A DNA stretch of 64,000 nt from a virus, in the IMG/VR virus record IMGVR_UViG_3300035034_003571, positions 67,160 to 131,159 of that record. The stretch is one strand, 5' to 3'. The position numbers were made by a program, and so were the translations under genes. A model generated the notes under the pieces. That model saw only the letters and a program-made list of their open reading frames with translations, was not told the origin of the DNA and ran no database searches. Positions 7,346 through 64,000 of this stretch are shown here, in pieces; position 1 is the stretch's first letter, and every line of letters starts with the position of its first letter.

Positions 7346-8140
7346 TCAATTCCATTGAAGGAAAAAATGCGGAGTATTTTCTCCGTCTATCATATCTTTA
7401 ACCTCCTGAAGTTCATTTTCTCCGTCGGTTCTTAAGTCTGAAGGGTTTACCTGGACCCCGCCAGGAAGATTATAGTTGAACGCACTTAGCATTCTCGCTA
7501 AGTTTATTTTAGCTCTAGCTATAGTATATCTTACGAATAATTCATCGTCATATAATTCATCATCATCCAAAGCAACAAAGCATCTTATAGCTACATCTAC
7601 TCCTCCTGGATCGAAAGCTCCTTTGTTACTTTGTGGACCAGATTCTCCTCCGACTCCACTTCTGTATGGATCCCTACCTAAAATAGTTAGTTTCTTAGAA
7701 TTTTTATTCCATTTATAGGCAAACGTTTCTAGCATATAAGCTCTAGCTAAATCAAAATATGAATACATTACTGTTCTATATACTAAGTTGTCTCCCACGA
7801 AAGGTGACATTAAAAGTTCAGATCCTAGAAGTTTGGAATCTCCGAAATCCTTGTCTGGGTTTCCACTTATTCCAGTTCCATTAACTTCTCTAACGTCATG
7901 AACCGTTATGATTTTAGCTGGAAGTACTATCTGTCTGGTTCTTCTAAATTCTTGATGGTTAAAAACCTCACTAGCAACTACCATTACTCTTTCTTCTACA
8001 GCGTACTGATAATTATCATACATCCATGCTCTAGCTCTTTTTATTATCCTTTTAATTTCAGGTTCTTTTAGATTATAAGGTAAAGAACAGCTATGTGAAA
8101 GATCATCCTGTATTTCTTTTATTAATTCGGCTTCGGTCAT
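7346..8140 (-). CDS. Neck protein (T4 gp13-like)
   Basis: FKWN-like YKWNKNSKKLTILG and C-terminal LPGGVQVN...GENELQE are typical of gp13. Confidence 0.75.
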   Translation of the reverse strand: MTEAELIKEIQDDLSHSCSLPYNLKEPEIKRIIKRARAWMYDNYQYAVEERVMVVASEVFNHQEFRRTRQIVLPAKIITVHDVREVNGTGISGNPDKDFGDSKLLGSELLMSPFVGDNLVYRTVMYSYFDLARAYMLETFAYKWNKNSKKLTILGRDPYRSGVGGESGPQSNKGAFDPGGVDVAIRCFVALDDDELYDDELFVRYTIARAKINLARMLSAFNYNLPGGVQVNPSDLRTDGENELQEVKDMIDGENTPHFFLQWN

Positions 8141-12018: not shown

Positions 12019-12020
12019 TA

Positions 12021-27438: not shown

Positions 27439-29919
27439 TTATTTCTTTAAATCTTCATCTGTAACCTCTATACATGCATTAGAAGGAGGCTGGGGTACAT
27501 CATCAAATTCTTTAGAATTCATTCTTTTTAAATGGGTCTCTAAAACACCTAAGTTATTAAAGGTTCTTTTTAAATTAGATCCCAAAGATTTAAATTTACC
27601 ATTTTCTGGAATTTTTCCCAGAACCTCTTTTAACGCGGAGCCAAAATAAGCTCTAACGCTTCTCCCTGAACCTGCAGCTAAACCAGTAACCCTCATAGTA
27701 ATTCCATTTTCTCCTAGGAATAAAATAGGACCTTCTGAGGATTCTCTAAATTCGTTATAATATCCGTCATTATTAAGTCTTTCTATAACATCATTAGTTA
27801 ACACGTTTTCTCTTATCCAAGAAGCAGAAGTGATCATTTTACTACCGTCGTGGGTAAACATACCAGATAGCATAATTAATAAATTATTTATCCCAACAAA
27901 ATCTTCTATTCCAAGATCAGCGTCACCCCTATCAGCTTCATCCTCTTGTATCAAATTAACAAAGGCTTTTTTAATAGGGCCTTTAAGATCCTCCATACTT
28001 ATATAAGAAGTTTCAGATTCTAGTATAGATTTAACTTTTTTATAAACCCCTTGGATTTTAATATCATCGTTTTTTAATACTCTGTCAAAAAATTCACTAA
28101 TCTTTGAAGCAGATTCGGATCTTTTTAGCATTCCGATTTTATTATAGATTCCTGTGTAATTTTTTATAAAGTTTGGATAATCTTCTGAGTCTTCTCCATT
28201 AACTTCTTCCCATTTAACTATATTTAGAGGAGTATAAAGACTAGATTTTTTAGAATTAGTAGAATATAGACCTCCTTCTAAAAAGAAGAAGTCTTGAGAA
28301 TCCTCAGAATTTTCTATTGCATATTCCCAAGATTCCAAAAATTTCTTGCTATATTTCTTTTTAAGAGCTCCGTCGTCTCTAATAAAATTTTCAGCTTCCA
28401 AAGTAACTCCGCCTTTTCTTAAAGATTTAGCTACTTTTTCACTTAGTGCTTTAGCATCAAAATCCTCTCCTTCTCCAGCTGATTTATTTAAAACTTTGGA
28501 ACCTTTGGATTTAACCCTAAATTCTTCATAGTACGTATTTATATCATCACTCAAAGCCGATTTATCCAGTCTTATTTTATCCGATTCATTTATTGAAAAG
28601 AAATCAGAGGTGCTCAATACTTTTTTAGCCTTAAATTTTTCTAATGAATTAACTACGGATTCGTTAGTGACAGTTTCTTTCATAACGTCCAAAGACTTTA
28701 TTATCTTTTCTCTGTCTGAAGATTCAATAAAATCAGAAGCTAAAAGTATATCTAAAAGCTCTCTATCAACTTCACCAGTAACGTTCTTATTTCCACTTTG
28801 TTTTTGTAAAGCAGCAATAACAGCAGATGTTGCATTTCCATATTTTCCGTCTGCTCCTCCTTTATCTTTCAAGAAAGAATTTATTGTACTTACTCCGTTC
28901 ATAAGACCTTTTTGTAAATTATAAATAAACTCAGATTCATCGAACTTGTCGTCACTATCTTGGTCACCAACTTTTATCGGAAAAGCTTCCTCGTTAAACT
29001 TACTTTCTCTATCCTCTATCTTATCTTGAATTATCTGCTCTGCCGTTACTTGAGCGGACGTAGCCGTTGCGAAGTGATCAAGAGCTTTTGTTACTAAAGT
29101 AACTATATCTCCATACACATCTTTTAATTCTTCATCATTCTCAAGATTTTTTAATTCCTTTTCAGTTGCAGATAAAATAGACTTATTAAAGTCAGCTTGG
29201 GTTTTAGCTACCATTTTTTCTAGATCTTTCAGAATGTCTTTATCTTTAGAACCCGTACCATCTCTAGTAGTATCCAATGCAGTTAACCTTTGAGATAACT
29301 GAGAAAATTCTCTTTTCCAATCTTTACTATACCCGTTTCGGCTGTTTTTATTTTCCGCGGAACTCATTAGGTTAGTTAATTGATCTCTAAGTCTTTTTAC
29401 CCTTCCCCTATATCCTGAAAGAAGCTCTTCATTCAAAACTTCATCTTCTGAAAATTCTAACGATTCGTTCTTTTTAGAAAGTTCGTCAGCTATTTCGTTT
29501 AAAGATCCCTGTAGTTTCTCTGCATTTTCTTTTGAATATTTTACAAAGTTTCTTCCTTTTTCTTTAGATAAAGCTTCAGTCTTTTTTATGGCTTCTATAA
29601 AAACATCTATAGATTTCATATAAAGATCTTTAGCGTCGGAAAAATTTCCGTCCGCTACTTCACTATCATCTGAATATTCTTTAATTTTAGCTAGTAGTTC
29701 AACCCCAGTTTTTGAGCTGAATATATCACTAAGCTTAGTTTTTATAACAGATATTTTTCTATCTTTTTTTGGGGCTAAGTCAAAGTTTATTCTTTTAAAA
29801 GTTTCTAATGACGTATCAGCAACCTTTTTCATTAATTCGTCGACCTTTTCATTTTCAAAGATCTTATCGTAATTAGAAAATTGTCTAGCTACTGGATTTA
29901 TTTTAAAATATTCCTTCAT
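27439..29919 (-). CDS. Large coiled-coil virion-associated protein with a peptidoglycan-binding-like domain
   Basis: DGKYGNATSAVIAALQKQSG...TGEVD (PG_binding_1-like); several xNE putative cleavage sites. Confidence 0.55.
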   Translation of the reverse strand: MKEYFKINPVARQFSNYDKIFENEKVDELMKKVADTSLETFKRINFDLAPKKDRKISVIKTKLSDIFSSKTGVELLAKIKEYSDDSEVADGNFSDAKDLYMKSIDVFIEAIKKTEALSKEKGRNFVKYSKENAEKLQGSLNEIADELSKKNESLEFSEDEVLNEELLSGYRGRVKRLRDQLTNLMSSAENKNSRNGYSKDWKREFSQLSQRLTALDTTRDGTGSKDKDILKDLEKMVAKTQADFNKSILSATEKELKNLENDEELKDVYGDIVTLVTKALDHFATATSAQVTAEQIIQDKIEDRESKFNEEAFPIKVGDQDSDDKFDESEFIYNLQKGLMNGVSTINSFLKDKGGADGKYGNATSAVIAALQKQSGNKNVTGEVDRELLDILLASDFIESSDREKIIKSLDVMKETVTNESVVNSLEKFKAKKVLSTSDFFSINESDKIRLDKSALSDDINTYYEEFRVKSKGSKVLNKSAGEGEDFDAKALSEKVAKSLRKGGVTLEAENFIRDDGALKKKYSKKFLESWEYAIENSEDSQDFFFLEGGLYSTNSKKSSLYTPLNIVKWEEVNGEDSEDYPNFIKNYTGIYNKIGMLKRSESASKISEFFDRVLKNDDIKIQGVYKKVKSILESETSYISMEDLKGPIKKAFVNLIQEDEADRGDADLGIEDFVGINNLLIMLSGMFTHDGSKMITSASWIRENVLTNDVIERLNNDGYYNEFRESSEGPILFLGENGITMRVTGLAAGSGRSVRAYFGSALKEVLGKIPENGKFKSLGSNLKRTFNNLGVLETHLKRMNSKEFDDVPQPPSNACIEVTDEDLKK

Positions 29920-29939: not shown

Positions 29940-30212
29940 TTAGTATATATGAGATGAGTCTCCACTGTTTGCCTTTTTCATCATTGAAGACGAAAGATCT
30001 CTAAGTAACCCAGGCATTTTTTGATATAGGTTAGCCTGTACGTTTATAGATCTAGCTTTATCCTCAATAGTTTCCGCGTCTTTTTGTTTTTGTAATTCCT
30101 CTGAAATATCTTCTCTAAGCTTACTTATCTTAAGCTTAATTTCAGTTATACTAGTATTTACGTTTTCGTTTATTTTCTTTTGAAAATCCGAAAATAATTC
30201 TAAATCACACAT
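29940..30212 (-). CDS. Hypothetical protein, candidate internal head protein
   Basis: N-terminal LELFSDFQKKINEN. Confidence 0.5.
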   Translation of the reverse strand: MCDLELFSDFQKKINENVNTSITEIKLKISKLREDISEELQKQKDAETIEDKARSINVQANLYQKMPGLLRDLSSSMMKKANSGDSSHIY

Positions 30213-31086
30213 ATCTATTAGCTATTGTTATTTTTGTTCTAAGGTCTCTGATTTTTTCCATACTATCCATAGAAATTTCTTTAAGCTCTTTACTAACCTC
30301 TTCCTTTGATTCAGGGGACGCTTTTATTTTGTCCATTAAAGATTCCTTTTCTTTATCTAAAACGGCATATTTTTCGTTTCTTTCTTTCCTGATATATTTA
30401 ACCAGCTTTTTCAATTGGATAGAATCCATAGACTTTACTCTATTTTCAAAAGATTCGTGAGTCATATCTAGAAGTTTTTCCATAGAAGCTTCAGAATCTC
30501 CCTTAGAATATTTGAAAGATATTAAAGATCCATATTTACTTCTAAATGCAGAATCTTTCTTTTTAGCCCTTTCCATTGAACTTCTGTACTTTCTATATAG
30601 TTCATCAGCCGTTGTATCACTGGAGAGTGACTTGGCTTTCTTATACATATCTTCTGCAAGATCACTTTCTAAATTGGAAAGTTCAAGGTCCCAGTATGCT
30701 TTCAGCCTATCCGTTTTTTGAACCATTTCTTGTCCCCTTGTTTTTAACTTCTTTAGATCGCTAGAATGCTTTTTGGTTAAAGCATCTAAAACTTTTTCTT
30801 TTCTAGAAAGTATTCTATCGATCTTTTTTCTTTCTGCGGGGTCGCTTTTAGTTTGTTCTTTTTCAACTTCTAATGAATCTATATCAGAAATTATATCTTC
30901 CCATTCATCAACATACTCATTTTCCACCTTTTTGATATCATCTAAAATATCATCTAGCTTTGAAACTTTACCCCCGAATTTTTTACTAAGCCAGTTTATA
31001 GCTTTATCATATCCTGCTCCTTCCTCGACAAGATCTGGATTCTTTGTAGATCTCCAATCGTTGAATGCTAAAACTTTTCTATTCAT
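30205..31086 (-). CDS. Coiled-coil protein, paralogue of 31089..32207
   Basis: WLSKKFGGKVSKLDDIL aligns with NISKNFLGSLSYIKMIDDL. Confidence 0.55.
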   Translation of the reverse strand: MNRKVLAFNDWRSTKNPDLVEEGAGYDKAINWLSKKFGGKVSKLDDILDDIKKVENEYVDEWEDIISDIDSLEVEKEQTKSDPAERKKIDRILSRKEKVLDALTKKHSSDLKKLKTRGQEMVQKTDRLKAYWDLELSNLESDLAEDMYKKAKSLSSDTTADELYRKYRSSMERAKKKDSAFRSKYGSLISFKYSKGDSEASMEKLLDMTHESFENRVKSMDSIQLKKLVKYIRKERNEKYAVLDKEKESLMDKIKASPESKEEVSKELKEISMDSMEKIRDLRTKITIANRYV

Positions 31087-31088
31087 TA

Positions 31089-32207
31089 TTAAGATATTTT
31101 TTTAATTATTTCCTTTACAAAACTTTCGGATGAATTTTTTCCGAGTTTATTAAAAAGATCTATTATATATTTTGTTGTACCAGATCCGGCATCCTTTCCG
31201 TCTGATACCGTTGAATTTATTTTATTTATGATAGAAGTAAAATCTGATTCCTTTTTCATTTTGTTTTCTACCCCTTTTGCATTTTTACCTAAACTTCTAT
31301 AAAGATCTAATAAATTTTTAGAAGAATCTATAGCATTACTTAATTCAATAAGCTTCTTTTCTTTCTTTTTAAAAAATCCATTTGTGCTACTTTCAGGTTT
31401 TGATTTTATAGAATCTACTATTAAATCTAATTCGGATTTTAATACATCCTTCATTTTTAATATTTCTTCTTCCAATTTAGATTTCCTCTCGATTACTTTT
31501 TCTCCCTCCTTACTTTCTAAATATTTTCGTTCTTTTTTAGGATCAATTTCATTTACCTCTATTTCAGAAGTCTCCTCAGGTTTAGCTGAGAAAGAATTTA
31601 CTAGTTTTTCTACTTTTTCCCTAGCTTTTTCATATTTAGTTTTTAGTTCGCTAACCTCTTTAGGATCTGAAGCTTTTTTCTTAGCATAGTTATAAGTAAA
31701 TTCTGCTATTTCATAATCTTTATCTGAAAGTTTTAATTTAGCATATTCTTTTCTCCTAGCTTTACGAGCAACTGCTTTTTCTATAAGGTTAACACCATTT
31801 TTCATTTTGGCTCTTTGATTATTCATGAAAGACTTAAGCTCTTCGCTTTTTCTAATTCTTTGTCTTTGTAAAGTTTTTACTAATGGTGAATTACCTTTCC
31901 TGGAAGCTTCGTCGATTTTAATTTCTATTTCATCTATAGAATCCTCATAATCATAAGATTTCTTAATGGTCTCTTTTTCTATATCAGATAACTTTTTAAT
32001 TAGATCGTCTATCATTTTTATATAGGAAAGGGAGCCTAAAAAATTCTTTGATATATTATTCTTGATATTATCCAAAAGATTTAGTTTTTCATTAAGTGAA
32101 GAACCCATCATATAAGATATCACATCAGAAATTAGTTCCTGATCCTCGACCAACGAATATAATTGACTTTCGTTTAAAAAGGATTTAAATGAGGATAACT
32201 TATACAT
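31089..32207 (-). CDS. Coiled-coil protein, candidate internal head protein
   Basis: N-terminal MYKLSSFKSFLNES; late promoter motif upstream. Confidence 0.55.
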   Translation of the reverse strand: MYKLSSFKSFLNESQLYSLVEDQELISDVISYMMGSSLNEKLNLLDNIKNNISKNFLGSLSYIKMIDDLIKKLSDIEKETIKKSYDYEDSIDEIEIKIDEASRKGNSPLVKTLQRQRIRKSEELKSFMNNQRAKMKNGVNLIEKAVARKARRKEYAKLKLSDKDYEIAEFTYNYAKKKASDPKEVSELKTKYEKAREKVEKLVNSFSAKPEETSEIEVNEIDPKKERKYLESKEGEKVIERKSKLEEEILKMKDVLKSELDLIVDSIKSKPESSTNGFFKKKEKKLIELSNAIDSSKNLLDLYRSLGKNAKGVENKMKKESDFTSIINKINSTVSDGKDAGSGTTKYIIDLFNKLGKNSSESFVKEIIKKIS

Positions 32208-32230
32208 AATTATATAATATACATTTTATC

Positions 32231-32238
32231 TATATATC
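32231..32238 (-). promoter_or_regulatory. Putative late promoter GATATATA
   Basis: Same octamer, just after the capsid terminator. Confidence 0.65.
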
Positions 32239-32248
32239 GTTACCCAAT

Positions 32249-32282
32249 AAAAAAACCCCAAGCTAATTAGCTTGGGGTTTTT
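32249..32282 (-). terminator. Rho-independent terminator after the major capsid gene
   Basis: Palindrome AAAAACCCCAAGCTAATTAGCTTGGGGTTTTT. Confidence 0.85.
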
Positions 32283-32305
32283 ATTATTAAACTGTGCTTT
32301 ATTTA

Positions 32306-33979
32306 TTAAGATAAACCTCCAGAAGGTACCTTCACACTGAATGTGATGTACATTGTTTCAGGTAAATGACCAGCTTCAACTAGAGAGTATCTAGATTTAA
32401 CTGCTACCTTAGGTGACATAGTACCTTCAGAGATTGTCTGAATGCTTTCTGCCATCATGTAAGGCATGAACTTAATACCTGGCTCATCGTCTCCACCTTT
32501 TCTTCCAACTAAAACTCTGTTGTCTGAGAACGCCATGTTCTGATCAACATATACAGTCATACCTGCAAGCGAACCTACTGGGTAAAGTGTACCGTTGTTT
32601 TGAGTTAAAGTATTAGAGAATGGTGCAAATGTGAACTGAGAGATGTCTTGAAGTGCACTTGCTACATTAGCGTTAGTAACGATAAAGTTAGCAGGACCTC
32701 TTCTTCCTCTGTTAGCTACAACGTTTGCAGATGCTAAGATTCTAGAAAACAATCTTCTCTGAAGAGTAGACAAGTTTTCATATCCTCCAGCAACTGGACC
32801 ATCTGGAATAGCCATTACTGTACCCACGTCTTCTTTTCCAACATAAGCAGGAGTGTTACCAGCACCTGTATCACCTATTTCTAGGTTAAGGTTAAGGTTA
32901 GTTCCTTCTGTTGTTAGGAATTGCAAGTGGTTTGACCATCCTAAAGAGAATGCTCTTGCCAAAATGTGCTTGTTGATTGCTTGAGATACCTCATTAACCA
33001 ATGCGTTTTCGATCATAGAAACTACGTCGATACCGAATTGCTTGTTAAGATCTTGGATTTGCTCCGTTGTTACTGATGCAGCTACTTGGAAAGTGTCTGC
33101 TTCAACAAACTTAGTGAAAGTCGAAAGACCTAAAGATTTGTAGTAGTTAGATTCACCTACACCTCTTAACATTGGGTTGTAAGTTTTCGTTCCATCTACA
33201 TAAGGACCTTGAAAGTCATCAGTGTTGTTAAAACCAGCACCAGAGAATCCTTGAATGTGATCTTCTAGAGTTTTAACCAATACTGCGTTACCAGCAACTG
33301 TACCACCTGTATCGATAGCCGCTCCTGATAAAACTGTACCAGCAACTGTACCACCGTTAGTAAGAGCTGTGATTCTCAAAATTGGGAATCCATCAATTCT
33401 TGATAGACCTACAAAAGAACCAGTTAATAAGGATGCAGGTGAAGCTGGAGGATTAATTACAACTGCTGTCCCTACTGCCATAGTATCAAAAACTGCCGCT
33501 GCAGTAGGATCTACTGGAAATTTAATAACATCCGGTGCGTTACCATTTTGTGCTGTACCGTCAGATACACCACCTAGTTCACCACCAGCGTATACGTAAT
33601 CCAAGTAGGATAATACTCCCGTTGGTCCAGACATTGGAATAACTGGGACGATATCAAACCCAACAGTTTTCGCTGCTACCTGAATTGCTAAAGGTAATAG
33701 TGATGGGAATTTATCTCCAGATCCTGAATTGTCTGAATTGTAGAACCCTTGGTTAGGTGTTCCTGTGAAGTTACCATTTCCTGGGTAAGCAGGAGGAGCA
33801 ACAGCACCCATACCGTTAACAGTACCAAGTGTTTGGTATGCTCCGGCTGATTCATTTAATGAATGATAATGACAGTATTTAGTCAACCATTCTTTTTTGC
33901 CTTCGTCTGTAATACCAGCTTTCGACTCGATTAGAGGTGCCCAGGTATCATAGATTTCTGCTTCGTTAATTAATTTCAT
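32306..33979 (-). CDS. Major capsid protein (T4 gp23-like)
   Basis: GFDIVPVIPMSGPTG, EQIQDL, RGRRGPANFIV, FMPY and KSRY motifs; predicted maturation site LNE/S. Confidence 0.95.
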   Translation of the reverse strand: MKLINEAEIYDTWAPLIESKAGITDEGKKEWLTKYCHYHSLNESAGAYQTLGTVNGMGAVAPPAYPGNGNFTGTPNQGFYNSDNSGSGDKFPSLLPLAIQVAAKTVGFDIVPVIPMSGPTGVLSYLDYVYAGGELGGVSDGTAQNGNAPDVIKFPVDPTAAAVFDTMAVGTAVVINPPASPASLLTGSFVGLSRIDGFPILRITALTNGGTVAGTVLSGAAIDTGGTVAGNAVLVKTLEDHIQGFSGAGFNNTDDFQGPYVDGTKTYNPMLRGVGESNYYKSLGLSTFTKFVEADTFQVAASVTTEQIQDLNKQFGIDVVSMIENALVNEVSQAINKHILARAFSLGWSNHLQFLTTEGTNLNLNLEIGDTGAGNTPAYVGKEDVGTVMAIPDGPVAGGYENLSTLQRRLFSRILASANVVANRGRRGPANFIVTNANVASALQDISQFTFAPFSNTLTQNNGTLYPVGSLAGMTVYVDQNMAFSDNRVLVGRKGGDDEPGIKFMPYMMAESIQTISEGTMSPKVAVKSRYSLVEAGHLPETMYITFSVKVPSGGLS

Positions 33980-34015
33980 AATTTAAGCTTTTTTTTATTT
34001 TTTACGATTTCCGTT

Positions 34016-45130: not shown

Positions 45131-45404
45131 TTTCTAAATTATTAAACCTATTCATAGCATCTTCTAATTCGATACATGTCCACGCCCACTTACCAAAATC
45201 TTCATTACCTGGGAATTTTTCCCTTTCAGGTAATGATATACCAAAAACAATTTTGGGTTTATCTATTTTTATTTTAAAAACCTCATAAGCAAAGGGGGTT
45301 TCTTCTTCTGGATTACTCTGAGAATAAATCATGGCTTTATCCCCCCTTTTATAAACCTTATACAAAAATCCGTTTTTTTGAATTTCTTCTTTTAGTAGTT
45401 CCAT
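45117..45404 (-). CDS. Hypothetical protein
   Basis: 95 aa; AYEVF...EKFPGNEDFGKWAW. Confidence 0.55.
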   Translation of the reverse strand: MELLKEEIQKNGFLYKVYKRGDKAMIYSQSNPEEETPFAYEVFKIKIDKPKIVFGISLPEREKFPGNEDFGKWAWTCIELEDAMNRFNNLEIDEE

Positions 45405-46354
45405 TATTGTTTCATTATTTTTTGAACCTGATAAAATAGGGAAAGTAAGCTAACCATAGGATCTATTACCTGTCCTCTTTGAGCTTGGTGCTCTGCAACC
45501 TTAACTATAATCCCCGGAATCTTATCAATATGTTCTGTTTTATTTCTAAGTATCCAATCTATAAATTCTCCACCCAAAGCTGTCATGACATCTTCCACTT
45601 TAGATGAATATTGGCCTACTAGAACCTGATAATTAGATACTGGATCTGGTTTATTTACCAAAAGAAGATAAAGATCCTCAAATGACCAACCGGAATTTTT
45701 AATCTTAGCTATATCAATAACTTTAGTACCGTCAATAATCCAAGATTGTATTCGGTTTAAAGCACTTCTTAAATCAGGAAAATTTATTCTAGTAAATTCA
45801 TTTAGAGATTCCTCATCTATAGCCATACCTATTTTTGAAAGTATAAGGCTGATTCTTTTCTGCCATTCCTCTTTCATATACTCTTCCTCTTTGGCATTAA
45901 CTGGGTCAAAGTTAATAATCTCAAATCGACTTTGTACAGGATCGGGTACATTATTAATCCAATTACAGGTAGCTATAAATCTAGTATTGCCCTGGAATTT
46001 TTCTATCGTACCTCTTATAGCCTTATAAAATTGGGCAGAAGCGCCATCAAACTCGTCAAGTATAACCACCTTCATGGGAGAAATCCCATCCATGATACTA
46101 ATAGATCTACAAAAGTCATTTATTTTACCCCTGATTACATCTACAGAACTTTCATCTGAAACGTTTATAAATTTACTAGGATATCCTTTAGCTAATATTT
46201 TAGCCAAAGTTGTTTTCCCGCATCCGGGAGAGCCTGCTAAGAGTATGTGTTGATTTAACTCGGTACTTTGGAAAGAACTTCTAATTCTTTCCGGGAGTAT
46301 CATTTGTTCTACTTTATTGGGTCTTAATTTTTCAGTTAGAAGTTCTTGCAGCAT
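45404..46354 (-). CDS. Clamp loader large subunit (T4 gp44/RFC-like AAA+)
   Basis: EKLRP, GSPGCGKTT, ILDEFD, FIATCN, SRF and PDLR. Confidence 0.9.
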   Translation of the reverse strand: MLQELLTEKLRPNKVEQMILPERIRSSFQSTELNQHILLAGSPGCGKTTLAKILAKGYPSKFINVSDESSVDVIRGKINDFCRSISIMDGISPMKVVILDEFDGASAQFYKAIRGTIEKFQGNTRFIATCNWINNVPDPVQSRFEIINFDPVNAKEEEYMKEEWQKRISLILSKIGMAIDEESLNEFTRINFPDLRSALNRIQSWIIDGTKVIDIAKIKNSGWSFEDLYLLLVNKPDPVSNYQVLVGQYSSKVEDVMTALGGEFIDWILRNKTEHIDKIPGIIVKVAEHQAQRGQVIDPMVSLLSLFYQVQKIMKQ

Positions 46355-46437: not shown

Positions 46438-46956
46438 TTATAAAAAATTTAACAAAACCCTGTTCGAGGTTGAACAAAATGAGTAGCTGTCTTGAGATTT
46501 AGCTATATAATTTAAATTCTTTTTCTTTTTAACCTTAAAACCTATAGCAACCTCTTCACTAGAACAAATTTTTATATTGCTAGTTTTTGAAGGTAAAAAT
46601 CTAAATAAAGTTAATAGGGAATGCCTTCTAATTTTGTATTCTAAAATTCCGCAAATACTTCCTAATGTAGAGTTTTCATCAAAATCTGTCACTGTACATA
46701 TATCATCAGAAAAAATAGTATCGAAAACCCATCCCCCTTTAATATTAGAGTTTATTAAAGCATATTTTAGAGGGAAAGAAAATTTTGCATATTTCAAAGA
46801 ATCTAATTCAGATAACTCAGAATTAAAATATTTTAGACCTTTACCATTCCAGGTAATTATAATTCTTTCTCCTATGGGATGTTCCTCTATATAGAAAAGC
46901 TTCCAATTTTTTAATATATCTACGTTTTTATTATATCCTGGGAGATTTTTAATCAT
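46438..46956 (-). CDS. Hypothetical protein resembling a degenerate ligase adenylation domain
   Basis: FYIEEHPIGERIII resembles ExKxDGxR without the Lys; WVFD, VTD and RRHSL spaced like ligase motifs. Confidence 0.4.
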   Translation of the reverse strand: MIKNLPGYNKNVDILKNWKLFYIEEHPIGERIIITWNGKGLKYFNSELSELDSLKYAKFSFPLKYALINSNIKGGWVFDTIFSDDICTVTDFDENSTLGSICGILEYKIRRHSLLTLFRFLPSKTSNIKICSSEEVAIGFKVKKKKNLNYIAKSQDSYSFCSTSNRVLLNFL

Positions 46957-47040
46957 AGCTAATTTTGAGTTAACAAATATAGATTAAAAAATTAAAAGAG
47001 GGCAGAGGTATTTAAGACTTTTAATTAAAAATTATATATT

Positions 47041-48042
47041 CTACTTACTATCGGAGTTATACTTAAGCATCTTACATGCCTCCACCAACTCACCTAGCTC
47101 AACTGGGGTTGCTCCCATGTACCTACAAGATATATGCCCACTTATATTAGAAATTTCTAATGTATTATCTATATCTATTTTAGAAGCCATACACAAAGAT
47201 AAAGTAGCTACTAAGCTATCTCCTGCACCACTAGCATCAAAGACGTAAACCTTATACCCTTCTACTAATTTCGTTTTATCTTCTTTAACGTATAATAATC
47301 CACCACTTCCTAATGTTACTATTAGCGAATCTATTCCTGTTTTTCTTATGAAATCAAAACAAAGCCCTTCTAACTCCTCTTTCGTTAAATCAACTTCCAG
47401 AGGAAGTCTATTAATAGTTTTCATATAATTTAAATTCGTCCTCAGTATATTCACTGAAGCTAGAGAATTTAATTTATAATTGGAGTTGTGATAATTAGGG
47501 ACATCCAGGATAATCGGTACGTTAGCAGATAAAGCTTTAGAAATAACAAGATCCAAAATCTTTTCGTCTATAAACATTCTACCACTATCCTGAATTATTA
47601 CAGCTGAGTATTCCTTGATATTAGAAATTTTATCTTCTATAAAATTATAAATCTTATCCCTAGATTTTATAGGTGATGTTGGGGTATCTATTCTAGCTAC
47701 ATGTTTACCTGAACTAAAAACTCGAGTACTTAAAGAATTTTGATAATCATCCAAGGTTAATATAAGATCCTCTGGTAATGCAACTTCCTTGAATTTATTT
47801 TTTATTAGCTTTTCTAGAGCATCCTTTCCGACAATACTTAAAATATCGCAGGATCCCTCTAGACTAATTATATTATTTGCTATGTTTCCTATACCTCCTA
47901 ATTGGTATTCAGTGAACTCCCTTTTAACTATTGGAATTGGGGATTCATAAGAAATATTGGACGAAGTCCCCATGATATACTCGTCAAAAACTAAATCACC
48001 AACGAGTAATATTTTACCCGCTTTAAATTCTATTCCTTCCAT
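47041..48042 (-). CDS. PfkB sugar kinase, HldE/RfaE (heptose-7-phosphate kinase) domain-like
   Basis: ILLVGDLVFDEY, ISYESPIPIV, LGGIGNIANNI, VTLGSGG and VFDASGAGDS. Confidence 0.8.
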   Translation of the reverse strand: MEGIEFKAGKILLVGDLVFDEYIMGTSSNISYESPIPIVKREFTEYQLGGIGNIANNIISLEGSCDILSIVGKDALEKLIKNKFKEVALPEDLILTLDDYQNSLSTRVFSSGKHVARIDTPTSPIKSRDKIYNFIEDKISNIKEYSAVIIQDSGRMFIDEKILDLVISKALSANVPIILDVPNYHNSNYKLNSLASVNILRTNLNYMKTINRLPLEVDLTKEELEGLCFDFIRKTGIDSLIVTLGSGGLLYVKEDKTKLVEGYKVYVFDASGAGDSLVATLSLCMASKIDIDNTLEISNISGHISCRYMGATPVELGELVEACKMLKYNSDSK

Positions 48043-48050
48043 TTTTATTT

Positions 48051-49664
48051 TTATAAAGTAAAGTTACTTTCTCCTCCTGATTCTTCTGCTCCCTCTTCTC
48101 CTGATCCTTCAGCTTCTTTTTTCTTTTCGAAGATCTTTTTTATTTTTTCCTTATACCTAGAATTGGCTTCTATTTCGTCTGGAGTTAATCCAAGGAATCT
48201 TTGTACTAAAAAATTTGGATCGAAATAAGCCTCTTCCTCTTCCCCAACTTTTTCAGAAAGAGTAGATAGAGTAGATATGAAAGAAGCTCTTTTAGCAAGA
48301 TGTCCGAGTTTAATTTTTAAATCAAACTCGCTCTCTTTTACGAAATTTATACCTAGATTAGATTTAAAAGATTGATCCGATGCCAAATCTGGGTAATCTA
48401 AACACATCTGAATGTATAGAGGTTTTATTAAAATCTCTTGGAAATTAGATCTCAATCTATTCAGGAATTTATCAAACCTCATTTCATCCCTTTCCATCTG
48501 ATCTATATTTATTTGATGGTTAGATGGGGTTCCTCCTTTAGCAGCAAATCTAGCATAAGGAATTTTAGAATCTTGTTTTAGTTTATTGAAAAAATACGTA
48601 ACAGTTTCCATGACATTAAAATCAGGGCCGTTTGGATTCAGAGATTCTATCTGTGGACTTTCCCCATTTTTTTCAGGAAACATATAATTTTTATAAAACT
48701 GTACTTTTGGTCTTCCGTTAATTGTTAATTCTCCACTGCTATCATCTAGGTCTATTTCTTCCTTGTAATTGGACATTAATTGGCCCAGTGTTTGAAGCGC
48801 TTTTTGTTGAGATTGAGTACCAACAGGAATAATAAATTTAAGTCTATATGAAGCGTTCATTACGTTCCATATAACCCTAGTATTTTCCATTATTCTTAAT
48901 ATATTATAGGATCTAACTAATCTTTCGATATAGCTAACCCTAGATATAGCATTACCTTTTGCATAAGAAAGATATATTACCTGCTCGTCTTTAAGCTTTC
49001 TAGTTAAATTTGCATTCCCTGGGTATTGTATCCAAAACTGTTCAAATTTATCAGGTCCAACTTTTTCTACTGTAGGTTGCAAAGAAATTGCATCAAGTTC
49101 TTTAAATCCGACTATATTTTTCCCAGTGTTATCGTAAACTATTTCTAAAGCCAAAAAACCGTCTATAAGAAATTGCTTCATGTATTGCCAACCTAAATTT
49201 GAATTAGTAAAGCCAAAAAGTGAATATATTTTTCGAAAGTTTTCGAAAACCTTATCTCTAACCTTATCTTTTAAATCCAGATTTACCATTTCTGGGTAAG
49301 CAAAAAAGTTTTTGGAATCTTGGACTATAGCTTCGTCCGACATAGTATCTAATATGAATTCAATCTCACCATTTAAAGAAAATTTTCTAAGAAAATCCCT
49401 TTTTCCTCCATAATCTTTATCAAAATATGCTATATATTTTCTTACTCTAGTATCTTGTAAAGCTGAAGTCCATCTGAAAGCATCAGAAACTGTAGCTCCG
49501 ACCCCTTCTGAGTTAACAAAACCAGATTCGGTCTTCCCTATAGACTGGGAATTCCTTATTATCATATCTTGATACTTCATACCGAACCTTGAAACCTTAC
49601 TAAGGTTTCTAAATAGGGTAGTCAAAGATTGTCCGCTTCTAATATTATCTAAAAATCCTGCCAT
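48051..49664 (-). CDS. Portal protein (T4 gp20-like), copy 2
   Basis: FLIDG, SYIERLVRSYNILRIME, SKIPYARF and RDEMRFDKFLNRLR. Confidence 0.9.
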   Translation of the reverse strand: MAGFLDNIRSGQSLTTLFRNLSKVSRFGMKYQDMIIRNSQSIGKTESGFVNSEGVGATVSDAFRWTSALQDTRVRKYIAYFDKDYGGKRDFLRKFSLNGEIEFILDTMSDEAIVQDSKNFFAYPEMVNLDLKDKVRDKVFENFRKIYSLFGFTNSNLGWQYMKQFLIDGFLALEIVYDNTGKNIVGFKELDAISLQPTVEKVGPDKFEQFWIQYPGNANLTRKLKDEQVIYLSYAKGNAISRVSYIERLVRSYNILRIMENTRVIWNVMNASYRLKFIIPVGTQSQQKALQTLGQLMSNYKEEIDLDDSSGELTINGRPKVQFYKNYMFPEKNGESPQIESLNPNGPDFNVMETVTYFFNKLKQDSKIPYARFAAKGGTPSNHQINIDQMERDEMRFDKFLNRLRSNFQEILIKPLYIQMCLDYPDLASDQSFKSNLGINFVKESEFDLKIKLGHLAKRASFISTLSTLSEKVGEEEEAYFDPNFLVQRFLGLTPDEIEANSRYKEKIKKIFEKKKEAEGSGEEGAEESGGESNFTL

Positions 49665-51253
49665 TATTTATCTTCTTTATTATCACCTTCTTCATCACCC
49701 CTTTCGTCTTCTTCATCCTTCTTTTTCTTTTCATCAGCAGCTCTTTTCTTAGCTTCTTCATTGGACTTTATATCTTCATTATTTAAGCCCAGATATTTTT
49801 CTATTAAATATCCAGTAGAAAAGAAGGGTTCATTTTCAGAAATGTTTATTTCCATTAATCCATTAATTGATTCCAATTTATTATTCATGGTTTCAATTTC
49901 CTGATTTACCCTAAATGGATTATCAGAAAAATATTGTAAACCCAATTGACTTTTAAATTGATAGTCAGTTGCAAGAGCTGGGATTTCTTTACACATCTGA
50001 ATCCATATGGGCTTTATCAAAATGCTTTGGAAATTAGATCTCAATCTATTTATAAATTTATCAAATCTAATTTCTTCTCTATCCATCCCATCAGCACCAT
50101 CAGAATAATTCCCCTGTGTTCCACCTTCAGGTCCTTGGAATCTGGAAGAAGGAACTTTAGATTCCTGAATTAGTTTATCATAAAAATATGCTAAAGGTTG
50201 CATATCATTAAGGTCTGGCCCCGCAGTATCCAAAGGTTCTATACTAGGAGTACCATTTACTCCCGAAGGAATCAGATAATTCTTATAGAATTGTATTTTA
50301 GGTCTCCCGTCCATCGTTAGCTCCCCGCTTTCGTCATTGAATTTAATATCTTCCTTATAGATACTCATTAATTCTCCCAAAGTTTGCATAGATTTTTGAG
50401 GAGACTTAGTACCTATAGGAACAGTCATTTTCATTCTAAATGAAGAATTCATAACAGACCATATGATCCTAGTATATTCAATAATTCTTAGTACGTTATA
50501 TGGTCTTATTAGTCTCTCTGCATAACTTACTCTGGAAATAGAATTTCCCTTCGCATAAGAAATATAGATTATTTGAGAATCATAAAGGGTTCTTCTTTTT
50601 CTTTCGTCGTCGGGATACTGTATCCAGATAGGAATGAACGAGCCATCTTTCTGTTCTTCCACACTTGGTAAAATACTACTAGAATTAAGTTCTTTAAAAC
50701 CTATAATTTTTTTCCCGTCGTCATCATAAATAATTTCGAATGCAAGTACTCCCTCTATTATTAATTGGCGGAAAAAATGCCAAGCAGTACCATCCTCATT
50801 AAATCCCCACAGAGAATAAATACTCTTGAATACTTTATCTAATTTATCTTTAACCTTTTCATTAGCATTTGAAAGATTCAAAAAGTTAGGAGTAGCAAAA
50901 AAATTGGAGGGGTCAGTATTGATTGCTTCGTCGCAAACTAAATCTAATATAAATTCAATCTCAGGATTTAACGAAAATTTCCTAAGGTAGTCTTTCTTTC
51001 CCTCATATCCCTTATCAAAATAGGTAACATATTCTCTAGTGGTTGTATCCTGTCTACCTAAAGAATATAATAAAGCTTCATCGCTTATAGGACCATTTTG
51101 TAGAAAAACAGCTTCAGTGGCACCTACTGCCTGAGAATTCTTAATGACTAAGTCATTATATCTCATACCAAAAGTACTTAATCCCTTAACAGAATCTTTT
51201 ATTCTATTAAATAGATTATTACTACTAGGTTCATTATCTAAAAATCCCGCCAT
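49664..51253 (-). CDS. Portal protein (T4 gp20-like), copy 1
   Basis: SYAERLIRPYNVLRIIE, SKVPSSRF and REEIRFDKFINRLR. Confidence 0.9.
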   Translation of the reverse strand: MAGFLDNEPSSNNLFNRIKDSVKGLSTFGMRYNDLVIKNSQAVGATEAVFLQNGPISDEALLYSLGRQDTTTREYVTYFDKGYEGKKDYLRKFSLNPEIEFILDLVCDEAINTDPSNFFATPNFLNLSNANEKVKDKLDKVFKSIYSLWGFNEDGTAWHFFRQLIIEGVLAFEIIYDDDGKKIIGFKELNSSSILPSVEEQKDGSFIPIWIQYPDDERKRRTLYDSQIIYISYAKGNSISRVSYAERLIRPYNVLRIIEYTRIIWSVMNSSFRMKMTVPIGTKSPQKSMQTLGELMSIYKEDIKFNDESGELTMDGRPKIQFYKNYLIPSGVNGTPSIEPLDTAGPDLNDMQPLAYFYDKLIQESKVPSSRFQGPEGGTQGNYSDGADGMDREEIRFDKFINRLRSNFQSILIKPIWIQMCKEIPALATDYQFKSQLGLQYFSDNPFRVNQEIETMNNKLESINGLMEINISENEPFFSTGYLIEKYLGLNNEDIKSNEEAKKRAADEKKKKDEEDERGDEEGDNKEDK

Positions 51254-51269
51254 TAATTGTTATTTTATA

Positions 51270-51896
51270 TTATACCCGAGGATCAGCTTTTAATTTCATT
51301 TGATATTTCTTATATATCTCAGAAATTCTTAAACCAATAACAGAGTCGAGATTTATATATGGAATAGCTTCCCAATCTGAGTAATCTATTACTTCAATAT
51401 TTCTAAAGAATTTTCTTTTAAATCCTGTATATGAAACCGAATATCCCGTTCCCCCTAATAGTTTTTTAATAGTTTTAGGTCTAAGATCCAAAGGTATTTG
51501 ATTTGATGTTATTTGGTTTGAGTTTTTATCTATAACCTCTTGGTAGTATTCAAAAACTTTTTTTAGAATTTCCGCCCTATATAAATGCGGAGTTACTATA
51601 AAATCTATAAAAAATTCTATCTTAGTCCCATCTTTTAATTTTTTCCCAGCTCCACAGTACAAGCCCAAAGGCATATGGTTAATATATTCTATTTTGTTAC
51701 TTAATTTTGAGTCAGTAAAATAGTCGAAAATATATACTTTACCAGGAATTAGATTACCATTAAATGTTTCTTTAGGAGCTTCTGATTTACCTCTAGAATA
51801 TTTTTTTCTAAAAAGGTTCTCAGTATTTTTCATAACTTTTTCTACAGATCTTCCATTTTCTAGTTTATATTCCAGAATTCTATCATCAAAATTCAT
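51270..51896 (-). CDS. Putative DNA end protector (T4 gp2-like)
   Basis: IPGKVYIFDY...YINHMPL; adjacent to gp4 as in T4-like phages. Confidence 0.55.
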   Translation of the reverse strand: MNFDDRILEYKLENGRSVEKVMKNTENLFRKKYSRGKSEAPKETFNGNLIPGKVYIFDYFTDSKLSNKIEYINHMPLGLYCGAGKKLKDGTKIEFFIDFIVTPHLYRAEILKKVFEYYQEVIDKNSNQITSNQIPLDLRPKTIKKLLGGTGYSVSYTGFKRKFFRNIEVIDYSDWEAIPYINLDSVIGLRISEIYKKYQMKLKADPRV

Positions 51897-52375
51897 TTTC
51901 CTCTAAATAAGAAATTTTCATCCACTACCTTAAATTTAAATCCTCTCTTACCTGCCCACTCTATCGCAGCTTTGAATTTAGCTTGGTTTGTGATGTATAC
52001 CTGCATTCTATGATTATAAGCCTTCAGCTTTTTTTCCGTTTTTGCTCCCTCAAAAACTGGTTTTTCTACTTGCCTCTCGGGTTTTACTTCTAAAATCCAT
52101 TCTTCGGTATCCCCGTCTCCCTTATCAGACTTAACATAAAAGTCAACATAATATTTATGAATTTTTTTATCCAGTGGATTATAATAATCTATAGGCATTG
52201 GTTCCGAAGCCCATTTTAATATAGATTCGTTTAAATCACAATAAGAACAAAATCTATATTCCCAAGAAGATCTACAAATTATATTGTGAATATCGCCTAT
52301 GTATTTTTCAGGATTTGTAGGTTCGTATTTACCAGATCTGAAATTCCCATTGGGCTTTATTTTTTTAATAGACAT
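51893..52375 (-). CDS. Head completion nuclease (T4 gp4-like)
   Basis: NPEKYIGD, RSSWE, WASE, YYVDF, EVKP and NQAK. Confidence 0.9.
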   Translation of the reverse strand: MSIKKIKPNGNFRSGKYEPTNPEKYIGDIHNIICRSSWEYRFCSYCDLNESILKWASEPMPIDYYNPLDKKIHKYYVDFYVKSDKGDGDTEEWILEVKPERQVEKPVFEGAKTEKKLKAYNHRMQVYITNQAKFKAAIEWAGKRGFKFKVVDENFLFRGK

Positions 52376-52378
52376 TAC

Positions 52379-52735
52379 CTATATATTATAATTTCCAGAA
52401 TCTCCTGTTATATGGCTAAATGGAATAGTGTTAGGGCTTTTTGGTGGATGTATTTTTTTCCATCCTTTAGCAAATCCGTTTTTACCTATTTGAGTAAAAT
52501 AAGCGAATGGGTTATTAGATTTTTCCGGATTGAATCTATTCCAATATTTTATAAGGTCCTCCATAGCTGAAGCCATGCAATCGTTTCTATCGTCTGGATT
52601 TTTATAAGCCATTCTTTTTGCTATACCCTCTATCATTAAGGTAAACATATCAATCATTTCTCGAGTAAGTTCTCCAGCTTCTTTAGATTCTTTAAATGCT
52701 CTCATTAAATCTACATTTCTAACATAATTAGCCAT
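52379..52735 (-). CDS. Late-transcription sigma factor (T4 gp55-like)
   Basis: NYVRN..L and FNPEKSNNPFAYFTQI. Confidence 0.85.
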   Translation of the reverse strand: MANYVRNVDLMRAFKESKEAGELTREMIDMFTLMIEGIAKRMAYKNPDDRNDCMASAMEDLIKYWNRFNPEKSNNPFAYFTQIGKNGFAKGWKKIHPPKSPNTIPFSHITGDSGNYNI

Positions 52736-52795
52736 ATTTAAATTTATTTTACTTTATATATTTTAGTCCAGGATTCGCTAATAGTTCCCAAACAA

Positions 52796-52825
52796 AAAAG
52801 GTCTACTTTATTAGGTAGACCTTTT
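52796..52825 (-). terminator. Rho-independent terminator
   Basis: AAAAGGTCTAC-loop-GTAGACCTTTT inverted repeat flanked by T-tracts. Confidence 0.8.
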
Positions 52826-52841
52826 ATTGATATATTTATAT

Positions 52842-54956
52842 TTATACTTTTTCTTCTTCGGAATCTAATTCACCTTCAGTCTCTTCCGAAGGAGTTTCTT
52901 CGCTACCTTCAGCTTCTTCTCCTGAAGTTTCTTCGCTACCTTCAGTTTCTTCACCTGGAGTCTTACTTAAAGCTTCTTCCAAATCAACAATTTCGTCTAT
53001 TTTATATTCTCCAGTTTGCCCGTTATCATGAAGAACTGTATAACTACCAGATGAACCATCTATAGATATAACTTTACCAGTATCTCCAGATTCTTTAATT
53101 TTAACAAGACTTCCTATATTAAATTTTTCATCTTCGGTAATACTCTCTATAGAAGAATAATCAATAGAATCGAATTTTTCTATTTCAGAATTAATAGTAG
53201 CCCATTTTTCTTTTAACTTAGAAATATTATTTTCCAACATTTCTTTAGCTTTTTTTATTTCTTCTGAATCAGATAGTTTAGAATTTATTCCAATAGCATT
53301 ATTTATTTTAGCTAATTCATTCTCTACAACTTTAAGGTTTTCTAATACTTTAGTTCTGTCATTTACCATAACAGATTTAATCTTATCTTCACCTTCTAAA
53401 TATTCAGTAAGACCTTCAGAAATGTCATAATTCAGATATTCTTTAACAAATTTAACAGCTTGCCTTCCATTAGAGGGATATAAGGAATTTTCATTCATAG
53501 AAGGGTTTACTTTATTTACATAAATTTTTCCTTCCCATTTAATTAGATTTACTTCCGCTCCTTCATATAATTTAGATCTTACACTTTTTATAAAATCTAA
53601 TTCAACAATACTGTCAAAATTTTCATAAAGCCTTATTATATCATATACTGATTTAGATCCATTAGATCCAAGAACTCCAGAAAATTTAGATTCTAATAAC
53701 TTAGCTAACATATTCTTATTATCAAAGCTTAATTTAGAGGTGTTTACATAAACAAAGTTAGAATCATTTTCGTTTACTATAGAGATCTTATCTTTTCCTA
53801 CGTAATAGATTATACCTTTTTCGTTAATCCTTAGGTTTTTACTAGAAAATGCTTCGTTTAAAGACTTGAAATTGTTATCTATACTTTCTTCATTAATAGT
53901 AACCACCCCTTCAGTATTTGCTCTGAAGTATTTTCCACCTATAGAAAAATATGTATTATTCTCAGAAAGGAATATGGGAGAGTAAACTTTAGCTACAAAT
54001 GATTCTCCTTGCTGTGAAGGTATATTTAAAGATCCCGTTTCTTTAGATTCCATTTCATTTAATTTATTTATTAAGTTTCCGATTATCGGATTGAATGACC
54101 AGGTTCTAAGGTTTTTAGATAAAAGTTTATTTGAGTTAGATCCTTCCTGTAACCATTCGTTCATAATATTAGCAGCTTCAGCATAGAATTTCCATCCTGC
54201 ACTTCTCTTAATGGAAAAAATTGCTTTCTCCACTTCCACTTCTGCTAGGCTTTCTTTTAAAACCTTAGATAGTGACTCTTTTTCTTTCTTAACTACATCA
54301 TCCCATTCAAAATTGCCTAATTCATTTACAAAATTTTCTACAATTATAGATTCTGGTAAATTATGAGATTTCATAAGGTTACTGTATTTACCAATTAAAA
54401 CCTTAAAAGATGAATGCTCAAAGATAGAAGAATTAGATAGTTTGGATATAGCTTTAGTAACTCCTAATGGTTTATAAGATGCTCTAGCTTTTTCCGTCTC
54501 GTCTACGCTTTCCATCTCTTTTTTTGAATTCTTTTCTATTGCGATTTCAATTAGATCTTCATCCGAATATTTAGCCAAAGCTTCTTCCCCAGCTTCTTCT
54601 TCTTCGTCGAAAATAAAACCTAATAGATCTTCTCTGGACATTTCATAGAATTTATCATCTCCTGATGCTTCTACAACTTCTTCAGACTTATCAGAATAAG
54701 ATCCGCTATTTTTACTTGAAAATCTTCCAGAATCCCAGCTTTCCATTAATTTAGAAGCTGCTTCTTTAGAAGATTCCATTTCTTTTTTACGGAACTGTTC
54801 CGGTAAATTTTTTGAAGATTTTAAGCTTTCCGTAAGTTCTTCCTCTGTAATTTCTTTTCCTGACTTTACCTCAGATAGGTAATGCTCAAGTATTTTTTTG
54901 TCACTCCCCGATTGTGTCGAGGTTAACATTTCTTCTATCTTATTAGCTAAGTCCAT
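52842..54956 (-). CDS. Large late protein with a C-terminal KOW/SH3-like domain and acidic tail
   Basis: FNIGSLVKIKESGDTGKVI; EETEGSEET repeats; several xxES sites; late promoter motif upstream. Confidence 0.55.
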   Translation of the reverse strand: MDLANKIEEMLTSTQSGSDKKILEHYLSEVKSGKEITEEELTESLKSSKNLPEQFRKKEMESSKEAASKLMESWDSGRFSSKNSGSYSDKSEEVVEASGDDKFYEMSREDLLGFIFDEEEEAGEEALAKYSDEDLIEIAIEKNSKKEMESVDETEKARASYKPLGVTKAISKLSNSSIFEHSSFKVLIGKYSNLMKSHNLPESIIVENFVNELGNFEWDDVVKKEKESLSKVLKESLAEVEVEKAIFSIKRSAGWKFYAEAANIMNEWLQEGSNSNKLLSKNLRTWSFNPIIGNLINKLNEMESKETGSLNIPSQQGESFVAKVYSPIFLSENNTYFSIGGKYFRANTEGVVTINEESIDNNFKSLNEAFSSKNLRINEKGIIYYVGKDKISIVNENDSNFVYVNTSKLSFDNKNMLAKLLESKFSGVLGSNGSKSVYDIIRLYENFDSIVELDFIKSVRSKLYEGAEVNLIKWEGKIYVNKVNPSMNENSLYPSNGRQAVKFVKEYLNYDISEGLTEYLEGEDKIKSVMVNDRTKVLENLKVVENELAKINNAIGINSKLSDSEEIKKAKEMLENNISKLKEKWATINSEIEKFDSIDYSSIESITEDEKFNIGSLVKIKESGDTGKVISIDGSSGSYTVLHDNGQTGEYKIDEIVDLEEALSKTPGEETEGSEETSGEEAEGSEETPSEETEGELDSEEEKV

Positions 54957-63616: not shown

Positions 63617-64000
63617 TTAAAGGAATAAATCTTCCCAATAGTCTGCTTTAAAACTAGCTTCTAATATATAGATATCACCACTTTCATAAGTTAGTTCCAT
63701 TACAGACAAATCTTCGGAGAGGAAAGCATTCGGAATGCTAATTCTTCTAAATACTTCTCCAGCCTTATTAAAAACCGAAACTACCATAGATCCAGTATAA
63801 TCCGCTTTAACTCCCATAGCCCCAGTTAATGGGTTATATATTAAATCCGCCCATTGTCTTAAAGCCTTATATACAGCCATAGAATTTACATCATCTAGGT
63901 TTACCTCAAACTCTATTCTTAAATCTAAGTCAGTGGTACTTGGCTCTCCACCCGCGTATCTCCGAGTAGCAAATTTATAATGCTGCTCTACTGGAGCTTG
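63617..64000 (-). CDS. Tail tube protein (T4 gp19-like), 5'-partial
   Basis: The frame stays open to the right edge: EQHYKFATRRYAGG...FEVNLD...LRQWADLIYNPLTG...FKADYW. Confidence 0.85.
   Translation of the reverse strand, partial: QAPVEQHYKFATRRYAGGEPSTTDLDLRIEFEVNLDDVNSMAVYKALRQWADLIYNPLTGAMGVKADYTGSMVVSVFNKAGEVFRRISIPNAFLSEDLSVMELTYESGDIYILEASFKADYWEDLFL

Follow-up and report, generated by a model that had tools for sequence, protein, structure and literature searches.

Evidence that the paired T4-type portal genes of a clade of large lake phages stem from one old tandem duplication

No machine part of tailed phages and herpesviruses is more conserved than the portal, and its twelve-fold symmetry, set against the five-fold capsid and packaging motor and the six-fold tail, is a matter of debate in the field of DNA packaging. 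In phage T4 the ring is a homo-dodecamer specified by one gene, gene 20 (PMC4493910). Here we describe a viral stretch of 64,000 nucleotides (nt), hereafter the window, from the IMG/VR record IMGVR_UViG_3300035034_003571, in which two portal genes, 49% identical to one another, have instead been retained side by side. The source of the window, which covers its bases 67160-131159, is a linear viral contig of 131,159 bp, and CheckV puts the completeness of this contig at 47%. Exactly two matches to PF07230, the T4 portal family, are found in the whole contig, and both are full-length genes, so that the usual state of one portal gene does not apply.

Both genes lie on the minus strand and the shorter of them, which we call portal A, precedes the longer, portal B; the initial annotation of this DNA, made from the sequence alone, had given neither strand nor order. 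It had reported two adjacent open reading frames (ORFs) of 537 and 529 amino acids (aa) with a TAATG overlap, a common MAGFLDN start and portal motifs along their length, all of which were seen in the ORFs and at the junction: A and B both begin with MAGFLDN, and both contain LRKFSLN(P/G)EIEFILD, GRPK(I/V)QFYKNY and R(E/D)E(I/M)RFDKF(I/L)NRLRSNFQ. Its description of the pair as clearly diverged portals was likewise borne out. By BLASTP, 246 of 504 aligned residues are identical (E 2e-177) and, measured against a curated cut-off of 22.9 bits, the PF07230 Portal_T4 profile matched A with 204.2 bits (profile positions 8-430 of 433) and B with 201.2 bits (positions 9-428), in each case over nearly its full extent. 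PHROG 213 (portal protein) was matched by A and B alike, and a comparison of A with PDB sequences retrieved the T4 gp20 entries 9LU6, 3JA7 and 6UZC at E-values of about 1e-11. Judged by these matches, A and B are full-length members of the T4-type portal family. The stretch was present in two lake-water metagenome runs, the first of which may be where the window comes from, and a 1,539-nt contig of the second run (X2) spans positions 48209-49747, across the A/B junction, with zero differences; two further runs (X3 and X4) contained short pieces only and were left out.

In order to place the proteins structurally, B was modelled with AlphaFold2 (AF2) from a 117-row alignment, yielding a predicted local distance difference test score (pLDDT) of 79.2 and a predicted template modelling score (pTM) of 0.75. 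When this model was compared with the PDB by Foldseek, chains of T4 gp20 (9MKB, 9LU7, 6UZC and 3JA7) filled the top 13 places, with E-values of 1.8e-20 to 8.9e-16, a probability of 1.00 and template modelling (TM) scores of up to 0.73. According to the model, B has the portal fold of T4 gp20, with wing, stem, clip and crown; the stem helices are present, plus a low-confidence loop between them at residues 367-386. For A, a 31-row alignment of close orthologues gave a model that was too poor (pLDDT 49.3) and was excluded from the fold search. In the sequence alignment both proteins run continuously across T4 residues 250-405, a region that holds the tunnel loop, channel loop and clip, and neither carries a deletion there.

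Megablast of 50,697 phage records gave no match. With tblastn, 1112 phage records had a T4-type portal, all of them at less than 60% identity. The best matches were to uncultured huge-phage records, among them LR756500 (41%) and LR756502, with the Lak phages (35%) next and then the PAU and Tenacibaculum phages (28-29%). A second portal place was present in only two of the 1112, LR756501 and LR756503. That of LR756501 is a 101-aa fragment scoring 22.4 bits, and LR756503 is a record of the same length with the same coordinates, the fragment check having been made on LR756501 only. These counts fit the premise of the initial annotation that tailed phages normally possess one portal gene.

A profile scan of viral contigs identified 291 stretches encoding a relative, and the locus counts given here rest on the best 80 of these. 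A was followed by B on the same strand in all 78 loci that extend past A, the other two (L051 and L103) ending within 33 nt past the A match. Furthermore, the spacer between the stop codon of A and the ATG of B measured -1 to 20 nt in each of the 71 complete pairs (70 loci and the window), which reduce to 56 distinct pairs once near-duplicate contigs are taken into account. Three large genomes contain exactly two PF07230 matches each, again in tandem: G002 (430,120 bp, complete with terminal repeats), G003 (348,582 bp, complete) and G004 (85% complete). Protein-cluster searches at E<=1e-20 yielded 2372 clusters with A as the query and 1647 with B, and the best 120 of each list fell sharply into an A type (67% identical to A and 49.5% to B) and a B type (67.7% identical to B and 48.9% to A); none of these best clusters bore an informative name. 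Relatives are common in lake metagenomes, and the label of one metagenome-assembled genome permits the guess that the host may belong to Bacteroidota. Additionally, a metagenome scan with B produced six loci, three of them on contigs already in our set.

Phylogenetic analysis traced the pair to one event. In a tree of 21 portals the A sequences formed a clade (support 100/99), as did the B sequences (92/94) and the two together (89/92), and the single-copy contigs L016-L019 formed the neighbouring group (90/88). A quick tree of 92 rows, which includes 50%-identity cluster representatives from 1.84 billion proteins and has T4 gp20 as its outgroup, was in agreement, with Shimodaira-Hasegawa approximate likelihood ratio test (SH-aLRT) values of 99, 96 and 94 for A, B and A+B, respectively, and with the single-copy relatives outside; in this tree the branching order within A roughly mirrors that within B. 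One full-length portal each was found in G001/L017 (482,156 bp, 100% complete), LR756500, LR756501, Lak-A1 and PTm1, and G001, together with its kin, is placed as sister to A and B combined. The duplication is deep, because A-type orthologues differ down to 53% identity (L009). It is almost certain, in our judgement, that A and B stem from a single ancient tandem duplication of the portal gene in the ancestor of a large and widespread clade of uncultured jumbo and huge phages from lakes, and that both copies are intact, stop/start-coupled in what is probably one transcription unit, and indispensable. The initial annotation had proposed an old, maintained duplication, to be examined by phylogeny across relatives, and this proposal is upheld by the single event in the trees, the retention of both copies in 78 of 78 loci, the two genes of the complete relatives and the equal purifying selection described below; the relatives within the clade carry both copies and the single-portal huge phages branch outside it. 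As a separate observation, the portal frame of Lak-A1 (L030; MK250016 221324-222619) contains six in-frame TAG codons, consistent with a recoded stop codon, and no in-frame TAG stops occur in the portals of the window.

To gain insight into selection on the two copies, we calculated ratios of nonsynonymous to synonymous substitution (dN/dS, or omega) for both genes by the method of Nei and Gojobori (NG86) in the 56 distinct genomes, which give 1540 genome pairs. As many as 1475 of these were synonymously saturated in at least one gene, and omega was taken from 39 pairs sorted into three dS bins. Median values for A and B were 0.027 and 0.034 at dS 0.01-0.3 (12 pairs), 0.010 and 0.022 at dS 0.3-1.0 (5 pairs), and 0.021 and 0.015 at dS 1.0-2.5 (22 pairs), the highest single value being 0.139. 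Across the full set of pairs the dN values of the two genes were correlated with r=0.96, as common ancestry would lead one to expect, and stood in a mean ratio of 1.00; it is the equal rate that is informative. Mean column identity was 74% for 31 A-type and 75% for 31 B-type sequences. A and B are under equally strong purifying selection, with omega at about 0.01-0.03, and neither copy is relaxed. We also considered gene conversion between A and B, and rejected it, because the A-B identity within genomes (median 0.500, n=58) equals that between genomes (0.496, n=3306).

We next compared the places at which A and B differ, using an alignment of 58 A, 58 B and 17 outgroup portals with T4 gp20, domain borders from PMC4493910, and columns that are at least 90% conserved in both clades. 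The same residue occupies 169 of these columns, and 30 are fixed differences between A and B. The differences are unevenly distributed: T4 residues 255-398, comprising the stem helices, clip, channel loop and tunnel loop, hold 22 of the 30 in 85 columns, versus 8 in the remaining 114 conserved columns (odds ratio 4.6, Fisher P=4.8e-4). Only three of the 30 lie in the N-terminus, where 24 columns agree and one differs, and the first wing segment, where 55 agree and two differ. In the crown both clades vary, and just 8 of its 84 columns are conserved in A and B alike. Six of the fixed differences are derived states in B and five in A, the other 19 being undecided, and the tunnel loop carries a net charge of 0 in A (range -1 to 1) and in the outgroup, and of +2 in B (range 2 to 3).

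Work on T4 assigns functions to these regions. The clip there forms the only main-chain beta-sheet between subunits, and it binds the terminase and the neck protein gp13; adjacent tunnel loops touch one another, the loops contact DNA, and portals without the tunnel loop assemble into 11-mers and 13-mers, whilst the N-terminus and wing fit the ring into the capsid and initiate assembly of the head (PMC4493910). The step from twelve-fold to six-fold symmetry lies below the portal, between gp13 with 12 copies and gp14 with six (PMC12929629).

A second component of the DNA conduit is also doubled in this lineage. Directly after a 1116-aa sheath gene (PHROG 34521, E 7.6e-119), G003 has tandem ORFs of 191 and 184 aa that are 55% identical and match the PHROG tail-tube families 45 and 3629 (L122 6003-7150). 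As the Pfam gp19 (PF06841) tube probe was too insensitive in this clade, with one sub-threshold match, a protein query derived from that match was used in its place; it found two tandem matches each in G002, G003 and G004, one in G001, and one each in LR756500, LR756501, Lak-A1 and PTm1, with no match in the fragment G005. The tube gene is thus doubled in three of three two-portal genomes and single in five of five single-portal records, although this amounts to one co-occurrence rather than a replicated correlation because the two-portal genomes form one clade. The window itself ends in an open-ended tail-tube gene, and a second one is not visible because that ORF is cut by the end of the contig.

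How might two portals be used? We infer that A and B are needed together. Since the capsid-seating parts are retained in A and B alike, the two would most likely be in the same ring, most simply in alternation. Under the reading that we favour, A and B would join in one ring at a single portal vertex, most simply as A6B6; the capsid-seating N-terminus and wing of this ring would stay alike in the two subunits, and the clip sheet, the channel lining and the faces presented to terminase and neck would exist in two fixed, complementary versions, one of A and one of B. That A and B are always together and tightly spaced, as recorded above for the 78 loci, fits what a hetero-oligomer calls for, co-expression being read here from gene layout. 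We regard co-assembly into one mixed ring as plausible, stopping a little short of calling it probable. A complex prediction for A (residues 60-505) with B (residues 62-508) from 117-row alignments, run without controls, returned a score of 0.01 and a mark of 0.32, and speaks neither for binding nor against it. Of the roles that the initial annotation had suggested, namely a hetero-oligomeric ring, a second specialized vertex, or a division of labour between packaging and neck attachment, the pattern of differences leans towards the shared ring and does not decide among them. A more specific version, in which an obligately alternating, six-fold A6B6 portal with two kinds of clip and tunnel loop would combine with a two-subunit tube into a hard-wired symmetry step-down, we put forward only tentatively, as possible and on balance doubtful.

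A number of points weigh against this interpretation. Co-assembly is proposed from sequence evidence. The domains were mapped from T4 at an identity of about 18%, a mapping with which the secondary structure seen in the B model is nonetheless in accord. Omega could be measured among close relatives only, every comparison involving the window being synonymously saturated, and in one related contig (L093 5650-7238) B lies in two frames, through a frameshift or a sequencing error, the sole such case among the 78. The retention of A and B is, moreover, one evolutionary event seen many times, because all two-portal genomes form one clade. Finally, the solved portals among the structure matches of the B model are all built from a single gene product, and the pattern of fixed differences fits two rings as well, because the same regions bind terminase, neck and DNA in T4.

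The last two of these points also speak for the main rival to a mixed ring, in which each paralogue would build a homo-dodecamer of its own and the two rings would do different work within one infection. One ring could, for example, nucleate the prohead and dock the terminase, and the other could be stacked inside the capsid, occupy a second vertex, or serve in the neck or as a gate; different partners at the clip, channel and tunnel loops, which are the partner-binding sites in T4 (PMC4493910; PMC12929629), could then have driven the divergence. Nevertheless, the N-terminus and wing are nearly unchanged between the two proteins, so both look built for the same seat, and the derived changes are balanced instead of being concentrated in one neo-functionalized copy. 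One gp13-like adaptor and one capsid gene were seen, albeit in a contig that is only 47% complete. On this evidence we consider two separate rings unlikely, if deserving of serious attention.

Two further readings fit the symmetric constraint and the coupling poorly. In one, A and B are alternative or back-up portals, used according to host, conditions or defences, or one is a spare or decoy. Some bacterial defence sensors recognize portal proteins, and both copies are complete and appear individually competent. Stop/start coupling and the fixed order of the genes point instead to joint expression, and a sequence scan detected neither a terminator-like site nor a promoter-like excess between A and B. 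A redundant copy should, moreover, have been lost somewhere, whereas none of the 78 contigs is without B and the rates are equal, and a decoy would not need all portal domains maintained at an omega of about 0.02; we therefore regard back-up portals as improbable. In the other, one copy would be the true portal and its partner a non-virion assembly factor, that is, a portal-shaped chaperone or template. T4 portal assembly does require helpers, such as the portal assembly chaperone gp40 (PMC7824862), and the part of the window that was annotated showed no gp40-like gene, though most ORFs in it are without a family. The tunnel and channel loops are strongly constrained in both proteins, which would be needless if no DNA passed through one of them, and neither the equal rates nor the balance of derived changes suits an asymmetric role, leaving this reading an outside chance. 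Lastly, an assembly artefact, a two-strain chimera or a decaying pseudogene, the first of which the initial annotation had itself raised, is excluded for all practical purposes: although the window stems from a metagenome contig and B is frameshifted in L093, the contig from the second run bridges the junction without differences, the pair is seen again in all 78 of the informative contigs as well as in terminally repeated complete genomes, neither frame is interrupted and purifying selection on both is strong, and A and B are not strain variants because they are only 49% identical.

The features of the window that bear on the portal pair are collected in Table 1. A and B belong to a minus-strand gene run and, judging from its layout, are probably co-transcribed. 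A scan for sigma-70-type sites found 17 versus 26.8 in shuffled sequences, and the T4 late-promoter consensus motif TATAAATA, which we do not treat as evidence, had 23 matches versus 18.6 expected, none of them informatively placed. The sugar kinase gene that follows portal B is an odd companion for a head gene, and no terminator-like site lies between the two. Baseplate genes are also present in the window.

Table 1. Location of the portal genes, their junction and other features of the window
Feature	Position	Strand	Remarks
gp13-like head-tail adaptor	7346..8140	minus	PHROG 211 (head-tail adaptor Ad2), E 4e-9; one copy
Major capsid protein	32306..33979	minus	PHROG 28442, E 1.5e-75; PHROG 138 (major head protein), E 4e-33
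Prohead maturation protease, 651 aa	34016..35971	minus	PHROG 207, E 4.8e-35
Clamp loader	45404-46354	minus	Same gene run, past one gene without assignment after the pfkB kinase
pfkB-family sugar kinase	47041..48042	minus	PF00294, E 5.9e-16; follows B after 8 nt
Portal paralogue B, 537 aa	48051..49664	minus	Downstream gene; PF07230, PHROG 213, gp20-like AF2 model
TAATG stop/start overlap A/B	49662..49666	minus	One common base, 49664; read as ...GATAAATAATGGCA...
Portal paralogue A, 529 aa	49664..51253	minus	Upstream gene; PF07230, PHROG 213, PDB gp20 sequence matches
208-aa gene	51270..51896	minus	No PHROG or Pfam match; 16 nt upstream of A
T4 gp4-like head closure	51893..52375	minus	PHROG 218, E 4e-46; same gene run as the portals
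gp55-like late sigma factor	52379..52735	minus	PHROG 234, E 4.3e-14; first gene after the hairpin
Terminator-like hairpin	52796-52825	minus	Sole minus-strand terminator-like site in 46900-53000
Tail-tube gene, open-ended	63617..64000	minus	65% and 59% identical to the G003 tube pair

In an all-against-all BLAST of the ORFs of the contig, the portals were the only strong paralogue pair inside the window, and the capsid gene and gp13-like adaptor had no paralogue within this 47% complete contig. Just downstream of the capsid gene, two adjacent minus-strand genes (30205-31086 and 31089-32207) are weak paralogues of one another (27% identity over 161 aa, E 3e-6) with no PHROG or Pfam match. Beyond the window, the same contig has a tandem of three minus-strand ORFs, 537-561 aa long, with identities of 28-31% among them (G000:C1:42501-47490). 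Baseplate wedge genes on one side and the gp13-like adaptor on the other flank a homing-endonuclease-like gene on the plus strand (6035-7318), the genome being otherwise minus-strand. An 826-aa protein (27439-29919, minus strand) has a match to the peptidoglycan-binding domain PG_binding_1 (E 7e-7) and no PHROG match, and could be a virion-associated lysin or a tail protein. Base composition in 2-kb bins was usually 0.30-0.34 G+C, versus 0.407 in 12001-14000 and 0.382 in 32001-34000, the bin of the capsid gene.

Full-text searches of the literature, outside subscription journals and supplementary files, found no paper on a phage with two portal paralogues or on a hetero-oligomeric portal. Two portal genes were mentioned only for relic prophage islands of Wolbachia (PMC11376236), and the portion of PMC7824862 available to us does not mention portal duplication; a conserved two-gene portal state therefore appears to be undescribed in print. 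Two diverged portals kept under equal constraint imply that each virion has a ring of two kinds of subunit or else two portal-like rings, both of which would be new to biology. Under the former, the lineage would offer a clean case of a homomeric ring turning heteromeric, with the 30 fixed differences marking the residues of interest, and the parallel doubling of the tube suggests that the whole DNA conduit has been remodelled. Should it prove true, an A6B6 ring would, among tailed phages and herpes-like viruses, be the first portal of hetero-oligomeric make-up, as well as a natural experiment on the part that portal symmetry plays in packaging, gating and neck attachment.

With regard to described systems, T4 gp20 belongs to the same family as A and B by sequence and, according to the B model, has the same fold. 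N-terminus, wing, stem, clip, tunnel loop and crown follow one another as they do in gp20, and A and B each have the full set of domains. Identity between these portals and gp20 is only about 18%. T4-like partners are also present in the window, in the form of the gp4-like head closure protein, the gp55-like sigma factor, the gp13-like adaptor, the prohead protease and the capsid gene. Gene order is different, however, as gene 20 of T4 stands between the tail-tube and scaffold genes and the portals of the window are not so placed. The nearest relatives of A and B, at 28-52% identity, are the portals of the single-portal huge phages (G001/L017, LR756500, LR756501, the Lak phages and Tenacibaculum phage PTm1), which likewise have large genomes and the same portal family but only one portal and one tail-tube gene each, whereas the clade of the window has two portal genes and, where whole genomes exist, two tube genes.

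A precedent for a duplicated virion gene is found in T4 itself, where the vertex protein gp24 is paralogous to gp23, the major capsid protein. Both of these copies enter one shell-like assembly, an example of a paralogue with fixed positions in a symmetric structure. The positions of gp23 and gp24 are distinct (hexamers versus pentameric vertices) and their copy numbers very unequal. Unlike gp23 and gp24, portals A and B are coupled for co-expression and have diverged symmetrically.

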